Positions 21,854 through 23,556 of a stretch of DNA of 64,000 nt are shown piece after piece. Every line of letters begins with the position of its first letter. Within the stretch, counting starts at the first letter, position 1. Source of the DNA: a virus. Its lineage: Duplodnaviria > Caudoviricetes. Position numbers and translations under genes: made by a program. Location of the stretch: the IMG/VR virus record IMGVR_UViG_3300036987_000310, positions 312,675-376,674 of that record; one strand, 5' to 3'. The notes beneath the pieces are model-generated. The model was not told the DNA's origin and searched no databases. It worked only from the letters and a program-made list of their open reading frames with translations.

Positions 21854-21882
21854 TTGACAAACCTTAAACTAGGTGTTACCAT
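21854..21882 (+). promoter_or_regulatory. Consensus sigma70-type promoter
   Basis: TTGACA 21854-21859, 17-nt spacer, extended -10 TGtTACCAT 21874-21882; predicted +1 at about the ATG at 21889. Confidence 0.8.
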
Positions 21883-21888
21883 AGACAT

Positions 21889-21975
21889 ATGACGCACTTC
21901 TTGTAAATGCCCCGTGGTCCTCCGTTTCGTTGGCGACAGGTTATGGACCTGAACCAACGAAGTGCGGAGGAACAC
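21889..21975 (+). promoter_or_regulatory. Leaderless micro-ORF/leader: ATG ACG CAC TTC TTG TAA ATG CCC CGT GGT CCT CCG (MTHFL*MPRGPP)
   Basis: In frame with the downstream gene, whose SD-supported start is 21976. Confidence 0.5.
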
Positions 21976-22338
21976 ATGAAGACCATTGAAGCCGTCAAAG
22001 GCGCCATACGAGACAACGTCGCGGAGTCCCTAGAAATCCGGAAGCGCATTCACGCTTCTAAGGGCAAAGAAAAATCGAACTTCTGGCAAAACAAGCGCGG
22101 GGTTGGGGTAGATACTCGATATCTTCTTTTGGCGTATGCTTGTTTGCGCGGAAGGTCGTATTCTCAGATTGAGCAAAAGGTTCATCCCGGCAATGAACCC
22201 AGTCCGCGCGGGATTGTTGAGACAGTTTGCCGCTTCTTGCCAAAGGAAGACCCTGAAAGGACCCTTTGGACAAAAGAGCGGGTGAAAGCCTGGCTTGGGA
22301 TCGTGGACGCTTCCGAGGCCAAAGAGGAGGCAGCATGA
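21976..22338 (+). CDS. Conserved-looking phage hypothetical protein
   Basis: GGAGG SD; LLLAYACLRGRSYSQIE motif. Confidence 0.7.
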   Translation: MKTIEAVKGAIRDNVAESLEIRKRIHASKGKEKSNFWQNKRGVGVDTRYLLLAYACLRGRSYSQIEQKVHPGNEPSPRGIVETVCRFLPKEDPERTLWTKERVKAWLGIVDASEAKEEAA

Positions 22339-22862
22339 CCACGGCAACCATCCAGGACGAGCAGACTGGAGACTACCGCCCCCTGACGGAGGACGAGGTG
22401 CGCAAGCTCCAGGAGGATGCCTTCGACAATGGGAACACTACGGTGGCCGAGCAGGAGGCAGCCGAAGCAGCCTTCAAAGCCATAGTGGACTCGTACCTTC
22501 AGGTTCGTGGCCGCGTTGACCCTGAATGGCGTACCGTGCATGTGCCTGAGACAGATTACGAGGATGCCGACTGGGATTTCCTTGGTAGTTGGGTTTCCGT
22601 CGAATGGAAAGAGTACGATCGCTGCGGGGATAGAGAATATCTCCGGCGGGATTTTCCCCTGGAGCATTTGTGGCACCCCAACTGGGAAGAGGTCATCAAG
22701 GCTGAGGTCGAAGTCCGCGACGCAGCGGAAAAGGCTAAACAAGCGGCGTTTCAAGCCAGCCAGGCAGCTAAACAGGAGGCATATGAGCGAAAGCAGCTCG
22801 CTGAGCTGCTCAACAAATACGGGGTGCCCAAGGCCTATCAGGCGAGGCTCGACCATGACTGA
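22335..22862 (+). CDS. Hypothetical protein
   Basis: GAGGAGG SD, ATGA overlap; visibly GC-richer than its neighbours. Confidence 0.7.
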   Translation: MTTATIQDEQTGDYRPLTEDEVRKLQEDAFDNGNTTVAEQEAAEAAFKAIVDSYLQVRGRVDPEWRTVHVPETDYEDADWDFLGSWVSVEWKEYDRCGDREYLRRDFPLEHLWHPNWEEVIKAEVEVRDAAEKAKQAAFQASQAAKQEAYERKQLAELLNKYGVPKAYQARLDHD

Positions 22863-23181
22863 TAAGCTCTACATCATTATTCGAGCAGATTTGAGACCCG
22901 GACAACAAGCGGTGCAAGCTGCCCACGCGATGCGTCAGTTTGTCGTGGATCATCCGGACATTGATCGCAAATGGTTCGAACAATCGAACACGCTTGCTTT
23001 TCTTTCCGTTCCCGACGAAAAGACGCTCCGGAAGCTTGCCAACAAAGCTGATGATCGAGATTTGAGGCTTTCGTCATTCAGGGAACCGGATCTTGACAAT
23101 GCCATGACCGCTCTTGCTCTCGAGCCCGGCCTTGTCAGCCGAAGGCTCTGCAGAAATCTTCCCCTCGCTCTCGGCGGCTGA
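22855..23181 (+). CDS. PTH2-family peptidyl-tRNA hydrolase-like protein
   Basis: KLYIIIRADL..GQQAVQAAHA, FREPDL..TA; 108 aa from ATG 22855. Confidence 0.75.
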   Translation: MTDKLYIIIRADLRPGQQAVQAAHAMRQFVVDHPDIDRKWFEQSNTLAFLSVPDEKTLRKLANKADDRDLRLSSFREPDLDNAMTALALEPGLVSRRLCRNLPLALGG

Positions 23182-23216
23182 CGCGGAAATCGATCGCTAG
23201 CGCGCGTACTCGTCAT

Positions 23217-23462
23217 ATGTTTGACGAGTTCATGAGCCCTGCTGAAAAGGAAATCATGCACCAGGTTTACCCGGAGTCCACGCACGCGTGGATCCGCTTG
23301 GGGTCTAACGGCCCGGAGGTATATGACTGTTCTCGTTGCAAATATCGCAAGATCATATACAACGATGTGACAGTTGTTGTGTATGATCTTGTCGGAAATC
23401 CGGTAGGGCCAGAAGACGGCACTTGCGAATATGCCGGGATAGCTGAAGTGATGGAAGAGTGA
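23217..23462 (+). CDS. Small CxxC protein with C-terminal tag (..GIAEVMEE)
   Basis: HAW..YDCSRC..CE; resembles the minus-strand ORF ending at 25023. Confidence 0.65.
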   Translation: MFDEFMSPAEKEIMHQVYPESTHAWIRLGSNGPEVYDCSRCKYRKIIYNDVTVVVYDLVGNPVGPEDGTCEYAGIAEVMEE

Positions 23463-23466
23463 ACGA

Positions 23467-23556
23467 GCCTCTGTAGCCTAGTGGTCGAAGGCAGGGGACT
23501 TTAAATCCCATGCGGGCGAAAGCTCGCCGCCGCGGGTTCGAATCCTGCCAGAGGCG
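23467..23556 (+). tRNA. Class II tRNA, anticodon UUA (ochre-reading), Ser-like body
   Basis: Acceptor GCCTCTG/CAGAGGC; D arm GCCT..AGGC; anticodon loop CT-TTA-AA (23499-23505); 6-bp variable stem with GAAA loop; T loop TTCGAAT; G73; no encoded CCA. Confidence 0.88.

Follow-up and report, generated by a model that had tools for sequence, protein, structure and literature searches.

Arrest peptides of the RAPP/RGPP type (ApdA, ApdP and ApcA, SecM with its RAG-P, and the RAPP/RGPP upstream open reading frames of Streptomyces lividans) carry R-(A/G)-P-P at the C-terminus, often at or near the end of a small upstream open reading frame (uORF), and the ribosome they stall is placed to disrupt a structure masking a downstream ribosome-binding site (PMC12992588, PMC10951233, PMC7897499). 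RAPP and RGPP give a robust arrest that EF-P does not relieve and that requires little N-terminal context; RSPP is partly permissive (PMC12992588). A leader sharing these traits occurs in a 64,000-nucleotide stretch of phage DNA (the window), bases 312675-376674 of the 376,674-bp virus record IMGVR_UViG_3300036987_000310. Here RGPP is encoded just past the UAA stop codon of a five-codon mini-ORF, ahead of an operon that contains gene A, gene B and a PTH2-like gene and ends in a tRNA gene with anticodon UUA. Comparison with related loci indicates that the leader is probably a translational switch reporting UAA read-through, in which read-through would lead to arrest at RGPP, arrest to unmasking of the gene A Shine-Dalgarno (SD) sequence, and unmasking to expression of gene A, gene B and the PTH2-like gene.

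Known RAPP-type peptides run to tens or hundreds of residues and bear secretion or membrane signals, with the localization machinery effecting their release, whereas the phage leader would make a chain of about 10-17 residues with no signal. The regulated step in the known systems is release from arrest; in the phage leader it would be the act of reaching the motif through a stop. The downstream genes of the former encode Sec/YidC components, those of the latter a PTH2-like protein and an uncharacterized helical protein. The hallmarks of monitoring substrates such as SecM, MifM, VemP and ApdA/P (an N-terminal signal or transmembrane segment together with a Sec/YidC-type gene) are therefore absent here. 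In the trp and his attenuators and the ErmCL-ermC, cat and cmlA leaders, as proposed for the phage leader, the position of a ribosome on a short leader ORF sets the mRNA fold that controls downstream genes, and in the amino-acid attenuators the progress of that ribosome likewise hinges on one particular tRNA. In the phage leader, however, the sensed tRNA would be an operon-encoded nonsense suppressor and the sensed codon a stop, and what would halt the ribosome is a built-in arrest motif, not hungry codons or a drug. The +1 frameshift autoregulation of prfB, which encodes release factor 2 (RF2), also uses an early in-frame stop as its sensor and requires a bypass of termination for expression. 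There termination is bypassed by a frameshift, and what is sensed is the release factor, the gene's own product; here the bypass would be a suppressor tRNA (a tRNA with a four-base anticodon in distant relatives) and the output would pass through an arrest peptide and an SD hairpin. Synthetic suppressor-tRNA switches (e.g. PMC7969014, PMC6412442) similarly make expression of a target depend on a suppressor reading an early stop, but they are engineered and place the stop inside the target ORF, whereas the phage switch would be natural and indirect, acting via arrest and SD unmasking. The leader would represent arrest-peptide control with a new kind of input; a search of the literature turned up no description of a stop-gated arrest leader, nor of a PTH2/suppressor cassette.

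The elements of the locus are as follows, all on the + strand of the window.

21854..21882, +, sigma-70-type promoter (TTGACA 21854-21859, 17-nt spacer, TACCAT 21877-21882, TG 21874-21875)
21889..21906, +, mini-ORF MTHFL-stop (ATG ACG CAC TTC TTG TAA), with the gating TAA at 21904-21906
21907..21924, +, in-frame post-stop segment MPRGPP (ATG CCC CGT GGT CCT CCG), with RGPP at 21913-21924
21914..21975, +, SD-sequestering hairpin (minimum free energy (MFE) -36 kcal/mol, z = -3.16, from folding 21889-21990)
21976..22338, +, gene A, 120 aa, the predicted first leader-controlled gene, with its own strong SD (GGAGG)
22335..22862, +, gene B, 175 aa, its start overlapping the gene A stop (ATGA)
22855..23181, +, PTH2-like gene, 108 aa, its start overlapping the gene B stop by 8 nt
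23467..23557, +, ochre-suppressor-type tRNA, anticodon UUA, 91 nt, with a long variable arm (ARAGORN)

An initial annotation of this DNA had listed the promoter, the five-codon ORF with its TAA, MPRGPP, the SD-supported start at 21976, the PTH2-like gene and the UUA tRNA, and every one of them is found where that annotation placed it. The hairpin, the putative output device of the leader, was absent from it. The promoter scores 10 out of 12 and is the sole TG-extended site among 17 promoter-like sites in 15 kb (10.8 expected by chance). Because its -10 element ends six bases before ATG 21889, which puts that ATG at the predicted +1, the message is predicted to be leaderless, starting at or beside AUG 21889. 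No further promoter-like or terminator-like site was scored on the + strand between 21882 and 23557. Read-through of the TAA would make RGPP residues 9-12, as had been claimed, with a nascent chain of 12 residues at the arrest point. Analogy with RAPP peptides (PMC10951233) predicts CCT 21919-21921 in the P site and CCG 21922-21924 in the A site. Past the stop the frame is open up to ATG 21976, and the GGAGG of gene A lies at 21966-21970.

To follow the leader in other genomes, DNA was fetched for 24 gene A homologues in a protein collection, and metagenome and IMG/VR contigs were scanned with the gene A alignment. The 45 loci kept (numbered L001 and so on) are those with enough upstream DNA and a recognizable gene A start; their gene A identities reach down to about 30%. 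All 45 share one layout: a mini-ORF of 3-12 codons (typically M-x-x-[F/Y]-L plus stop), one stop, 3-8 in-frame codons, and R-(G/A/S)-P-P, with no intervening stop in the frame that leads from the ATG through the gating stop to the motif. A strict version of this pattern (ATG, 2-16 codons, a stop, and at most 12 codons ending in R[AGS]PP) occurs once in the window. It is found upstream of gene A in 44 of the 44 related loci scanned (56 matches including nested ATGs) and nowhere else on either strand of their 451,548 bases. Absence of the leader from homologous operons was an outcome that the initial annotation had named as refuting it; conservation is instead stronger than that annotation proposed. 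The PTH2-like gene travels with the leader: 41 of the 45 loci have one downstream of gene A, in the same orientation, and the other four have less than 1 kb of downstream DNA. A promoter of the form TTGAC(N)-17-TAnnnT, ending 6-11 nt before the mini-ORF ATG, is present in all 11 loci whose gating stop is TAA and in several TAG and TGA outgroups. In AT-rich TAG-clade leaders (L031, L033, L035-L038 and related ones), the sigma-70-type promoter is replaced by a motif ...CCACTAATAAC-N-GGATATATA... 10-40 nt upstream of the mini-ORF, which may be a phage-specific promoter.

Only three residues occur between Arg and Pro-Pro: Gly in 23 leaders, Ala in 13 and Ser in 9. The R-(A/G)-P-P core of RAPP-like arrest peptides, or its partly permissive RSPP form, is thus present in the window and throughout the 45 leaders, and the earlier statement that RGPP-type motifs stall ribosomes agrees with experiments on RGPP, RAPP and RSPP (PMC12992588, PMC10951233). 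The codons behind these residues vary. Arg is encoded by all six of its codons (CGT/CGC/CGA/CGG/AGA/AGG, both codon families), Ser by TCN and AGC, and Ala and Gly by four codons each. The 15-nt PRGPP stretch has five variable columns among the seven closest TAA/RGPP leaders, and every one of them is a third codon position; by our own count, the chance of exactly that set of five columns is 1 in 3003. Because Arg, Ser, Ala and Gly use so many synonymous codons, the post-stop segment is evidently under selection as a peptide.

The same segment also serves as RNA. Only 1 of 200 shuffled sequences folds as well as hairpin 21914-21975, in which UCCUCCGU (21918-21925) pairs with GCGGAGGA (21964-21971) and buries the GGAGG of gene A. 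Given this pairing, the Pro-Pro codons (CCU CCG) double as the anti-SD of gene A. In 38 of the 45 leaders at least 4 of the 6 Pro-Pro bases pair, in the MFE fold, with partners among the 13 nt that precede the gene A start. PP and the gene A ATG are 46-61 nt apart, and the first Pro codon is CCT in 39 of the 45, in AT-rich and GC-rich phages alike. The arrest site is therefore placed, as in RAPP-like systems, where a stalled ribosome would open the SD-masking structure (CCUCC:GGAGG; 38/45 leaders). The RSPP subclade (L008, L010, L014, L015) has its anti-SD just 3' of the PP codons instead. RNAalifold keeps the SD helix in the RGPP subclade of the window, where L004 has a compensatory exchange of G-C for A-U and one pair is G-U; run on the RGPP and RSPP subclades jointly, where the alignment is poor, it gives no consensus fold.

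These pairings invite an explanation without any read-through, in which an ordinary short uORF precedes an SD-masking hairpin opened by temperature, a small RNA, a protein or the terminating ribosome, and RGPP is a mere protein reading of the anti-SD. CCUCC is indeed a perfect anti-SD, the preference for CCT at the first Pro codon fits one, and the hairpin is stable by itself. Outside the SD pairing, however, the Arg and the G/A/S position are maintained as amino acids although their codons change, both synonymously and between codon families. The G/A/S set coincides with the set found to be arrest-competent in experiments, RSPP partly so (PMC12992588). With the ATG-stop-RxPP frame intact in 45 of 45 leaders and the stop co-varying with a tRNA (see below), we regard an RNA-only device as most improbable.

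A second way to do without the suppressor is re-initiation. In the window, L004 and L005 the codon directly after the stop is ATG, and bacterial 70S ribosomes are known to re-initiate where a start codon adjoins a stop. In the window and its two closest relatives, then, re-initiation at UAA-AUG might reach RGPP, making arrest and SD opening constitutive, or dependent on uORF translation rather than on suppression. But ATG follows the stop in only these 3 of the 45 loci, so the RxPP motif would generally be reached through the stop. The codon there is CTG or CTA in L001, L006, L011 and L012, and mostly ATT/ATA/ATC or GTT elsewhere, which makes the ATG a lineage detail on a design that works without it. 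There is also no SD before ATG 21907. Re-initiation as the route to RGPP is in our judgment very unlikely.

Least credible of all is that read-through exists to give the gene A protein an N-terminal extension, with the leader as the 5' part of a recoded gene. The initial annotation had the leader frame running into gene A, and in the window it does; there and in L001, L004 and L005 no stop interrupts the frame between TAA and the gene A ATG, and the two are in phase. The feature is not conserved, however. L006, L011 and L012 have the frame out of phase or closed by a stop, and in many TAG-clade leaders PP is followed immediately by a stop. Nor is there conservation of the residues that separate PP from the start of gene A, and gene A has its own strong SD. 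Since the in-frame run is not kept, an N-terminal extension of gene A is evidently not the purpose of the design.

The identity of the gating stop ties the leader to the tRNA. The window tRNA, the UUA tRNA with which the initial annotation had ended the operon, scores 59.5 bits against the Rfam tRNA model (cut-off 29). It shows the features expected of an ochre suppressor, namely a cloverleaf, a canonical 7-nt anticodon loop (CU-UUA-AA) with U33, the UUA anticodon, and a purine at position 37. Compared with the tRNA of L001, it has compensatory changes in the acceptor, anticodon and variable stems with the anticodon kept, the signature of selection as a tRNA. The long variable arm fits a Ser, Leu or Tyr type. 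The discriminator base differs (G in the window, A in L001), and resemblance to the 38 other tRNAs of the phage gives no clue to amino-acid identity.

As gating stop, the 11 loci of the window's clade have TAA and two loci have TGA; all the others have TAG. The loci were grouped into clusters at 80% gene A identity, and ARAGORN was run on the loci, two whole IMG/VR records and one extended contig. A suppressor-type tRNA is found in 23 of the 39 clusters, on the same strand and 0.7-5.2 kb downstream of gene A; the clusters where none was found mostly have too little DNA. In all 23 the anticodon matches the stop (5 TAA/tta, 2 TGA/tca, 16 TAG/cta). A full random match for 22 clusters (4, 2 and 16) would occur about once in 1.1 million by our arithmetic, a figure inflated by relatedness. 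The gene A tree requires at least three changes of stop type, each accompanied by the matching tRNA, with TGA having arisen twice and the TAA clade supported at 98/90. Within that clade there are at least four tRNA scaffolds, all UUA. The window, L004, L005 and L001 have long-arm tRNAs of 91-92 nt, and L006, L012, L015 and L010 have tRNAs of 74-78 nt. The tRNA itself has been replaced within the TAA clade while its UUA anticodon stayed. Genes for tRNA-Arg(CCU) or tRNA-Arg(CCG) and runs of tRNA-Thr genes recur beside the cassette, downstream of the suppressor in L028, L030, L040 and L072 and upstream in L060 and L061; no relation of the neighboring tRNA-Arg genes to the leader Arg codon was seen.

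Distant gene A loci extend the correspondence beyond triplets. In these loci RxPP is in the +1 frame with respect to the mini-ORF, and a ribosome would get to it on reading the stop and the next base as one codon. The four-base gates are as follows.

L054, L059, L063: MFFT-[UGAA]-...RAPP
L060, L061: ML-[TAGA or TGAA]-CRGPP
L065: MSGFL-[UGAA]-...RGPP
L067:697-810: MRFT-[UAGA]-YTACRSPP, with a tRNA at L067:611-685 whose 9-nt loop contains UCUA (reads UAGA)
L077:3285-3400: MPFT-[UGAA]-YARPPPP, with a tRNA at L077:3711-3784 whose 8-nt loop has the anticodon UUCA (reads UGAA)

The 451-kb control contains no ATG-initiated match to a four-base gate. Two of the four-base-gated loci, L077 and L067, also hold a tRNA, and in both it has the matching four bases, which suggests natural quadruplet decoding used as a gate. 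Further tRNAs with non-standard loops lie beside distant gene A homologues at L053:389-460, L044:2670-2744, L048:2883-2955, L064:3371-3449 and L062:3109-3183; ARAGORN gives their anticodons as tcta, tc or cc, and the leaders there are cut off or not recognized.

The four-base gates are the strongest argument that the leader reads the tRNA and not a release factor, because a release factor cannot explain such a gate. The competing idea is that the leader senses release-factor activity or general termination capacity, with release factor 1 (RF1) or RF2 depleted or inhibited during infection, and that the tRNA merely sets the sensitive stop. The architecture would measure the ratio of suppressor to release factor, and the two inputs look alike in sequence. 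Autoregulation of prfB establishes that termination efficiency can be a regulatory input, and T never directly follows the stop (A does in 32 leaders, G in 7 and C in 6), which makes a weak-termination context. Nevertheless, the stop type follows the tRNA anticodon even into the four-base gates, and tRNA scaffolds have been swapped while the anticodon stayed matched. We consider a release-factor sensor rather unlikely. The reading of the initial annotation, that the leader could sense termination, read-through or peptidyl-tRNA status and tune an operon containing the suppressor, is supported by this comparison (45 leaders, 23/23 stop matches, a PTH2-like gene in 41/45 loci).

A suppressor tRNA in a phage might also point to a recoded genome. 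The virus record has direct terminal repeats, and at 376,674 bp it represents a jumbo phage, with 39 tRNA genes and a G+C content of about 51%. Stop-recoded phages, which use codes 15 and 4, likewise encode suppressor tRNAs, and their late genes contain numerous in-frame TAG or TGA codons; TAA is not among the stops reported to be recoded (bioRxiv 10.1101/2021.08.26.457843, PMC9523058). This phage, in contrast, shows no excess of TAA-interrupted frames, with 75 frame pairs bridged by a single TAA versus 78 bridged by TAG. The standard code (code 11) already gives 95.8% long-ORF coverage, and we reject genome-wide TAA recoding. Neither the many interrupted genes nor the rise in coding density under an alternative code that mark a recoded phage genome is seen, and TAA is the terminator of 99 of 479 crude gene calls (about 21%). 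(A crude ORF-coverage test on 7-kb relatives was uninformative on recoding.) With the genome free of signs of TAA recoding, the leader thus appears to be the sole evident target of the phage's ochre tRNA.

A second TAA-gated candidate in the same phage genome, outside the window (G000:C1 ~145560-145660, - strand; L113:2060-2161), was set aside. Starting at 145660 (-) within a tRNA cluster region, it reads MVFSRLVNL-TAA-SANMRSRSPP, followed by an SD and the ATG of a 133-aa ORF. It abuts the preceding gene and has neither a promoter nor a CCUCC anti-SD. It is probably a chance occurrence, since a single one fits the false-positive rate of about 1 per 375 kb.

The proposed switch would work as follows. 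The sigma-70-type promoter would produce an mRNA starting at or next to AUG 21889, and a ribosome would translate M-T-H-F-L and then meet codon 6, UAA. Should a release factor win, the pentapeptide would be released, hairpin 21914-21975 would stay closed with the gene A GGAGG paired to CCUCC, and gene A would go untranslated, as would the serially overlapping gene B and PTH2-like gene. The leading edge of a ribosome extends about 12 nt past the A-site codon; that of the terminating ribosome would reach only the three outer base pairs, leaving the SD hidden. If the operon's own tRNA(UUA) decodes UAA, the ribosome would pass M-P-R-G-P and arrest, its P site on CCU and its A site on CCG. The arrested ribosome would cover the whole 5' arm (21918-21933) and free GGAGG, allowing other ribosomes to start gene A, with gene B and the PTH2-like gene translated after it via their overlapping stops and starts. 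Read-through would thereby activate rather than repress the operon. Since RGPP arrest is long-lived, a single rare read-through could be amplified, the message staying accessible through many rounds of initiation. Because the tRNA would be produced from the 3' end of the leader's transcription unit, the operon would both make and monitor its suppressor. As to purpose, our guess is that the PTH2-like enzyme and gene A, perhaps produced in amounts that scale with suppression, clear its by-products or feed back on the suppressor; alternatively, and speculatively, the tRNA might be a sentinel of tRNA integrity.

Several points weigh against this switch. Both release factors read UAA, and ochre suppressors are usually weak. 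An efficient one would be costly to the phage, since about 21% of its own genes end in TAA. The ATG that follows TAA in the window, L004 and L005 could let re-initiation reach RGPP without a suppressor, and with the window's read-through frame open into gene A, a leaky arrest would yield extended gene A protein. CCUCC could be conserved merely as an anti-SD, in which case only the R-X part and the frame argue for the peptide. The phylogenetically independent co-switches of stop and anticodon are few (3 to 5), so that 23/23 overstates the statistical weight, and L008/L115 has no suppressor tRNA within 11.8 kb downstream.

Of the genes that the leader is predicted to control, gene A has no recognizable relatives of known function. 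Its AlphaFold2 model (predicted local distance difference test score, pLDDT, 90) is all-helical with a long helical hairpin. Foldseek against the PDB finds no structural neighbor with E <= 0.001, VIA-align finds only generic helical hairpins (Z ~10), and the ESM Atlas offers nothing above 0.77; NCBIfam and PHROGs give no match, and DUF5739 scores below cut-off. Gene B is not conserved, and its slot is taken by other genes in L001, L008 and L012.

The PTH2-like protein matches Pfam PF01981 over residues 4-92 (38.1 bits, cut-off 23) as well as phrog_1866, and the conserved pattern of its family (R-x-D-L, G, Q, H-A, W, S-N, E-P-D, T-A, P) resembles Pth2. It falls far short of the Pth2 equivalog models, scoring 28.3 against NF003314 (cut-off 126) and 24.7 against TIGR00283 (cut-off 82), and the RGK Lys of AF2095 (the Pth2 GK motif) aligns with Gln. 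For these two reasons we call it PTH2-like only. Where the initial annotation had placed a PTH2-like hydrolase in the operon, then, the family assignment holds through the Pfam match, and a role as rescue enzyme is at most a reasonable supposition.

Searches for cultured-phage relatives of the locus (blastn of the locus, tblastn of gene A) found none; in cultured phages, relatives are found for the PTH2-like protein only. At the level of one 772-aa virion-type protein the phage is distant kin to Ackermannviridae-like phages, and identical DNA is present in groundwater, coal and soil metagenomes. In the cultured Bxz1-type Mycobacterium phage Catera (L114, NC_008207.1; region 2430-2500), a TTGACA-17-TACCGT promoter lies before the PTH2-like gp153, ATG-TAG stands in frame directly before the annotated GTG start of gp153, and two "tRNA-OTHER" genes lie 0.4 kb upstream. 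This region may be a related gate in a cultivable system.

Between the PTH2-like gene and the tRNA the window contains one more small gene.

23217..23462, +, small ORF of 81 aa with CxxC and C motifs, conserved in L001 and L004

Its end, ...E-V-M-E-E, fits a C-terminal tag [V/I]-[M/H/Q]-x-x-end. A link of this [VI][MHQ]xx-end tag to stop-codon choice was considered and rejected, as tagged and untagged genes genome-wide use the three stops alike. Convergent on the operon is a gene for a 2H-phosphoesterase (23501-24124, - strand; LigT / RNA 2',3'-cyclic phosphodiesterase / Acb1-like; Pfam 53 bits), the last 57 nt of which overlap the 3' part of the suppressor tRNA gene. This arrangement is kept in L001, L004 and L006, and the enzyme may have a role in tRNA repair or against CBASS (the cyclic oligonucleotide-based antiphage signaling system).

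A broader reading, which we offer tentatively as a possibility on the weaker side, treats the suppressor tRNA as a dedicated signaling molecule and not as a decoding aid for the proteome. The phages would then share a family of private codon/tRNA switches (amber, ochre, opal and four-base) that license a gene A/PTH2-like module via a stop- or frame-gated RxPP leader, with gate and anticodon co-evolving as lock and key. Such a module might report tRNA integrity or charging (e.g. under attack by host anticodon nucleases), or might keep suppression tolerable via the PTH2-like enzyme.

If the switch operates as proposed, the orphan suppressor tRNAs of standard-code phages would gain a concrete natural target and a control circuit, and the leader would be the first natural case of an arrest peptide armed by stop-codon decoding. 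RAPP-type arrest would be seen to work on nascent chains of about a dozen residues. The lock-and-key changes of gate and anticodon (TAA, TAG, TGA, UGAA, UAGA) would offer ready-made, mutually orthogonal translational switches, and a widespread, uncharacterized family of phage PTH2-like proteins would be tied to non-standard decoding.

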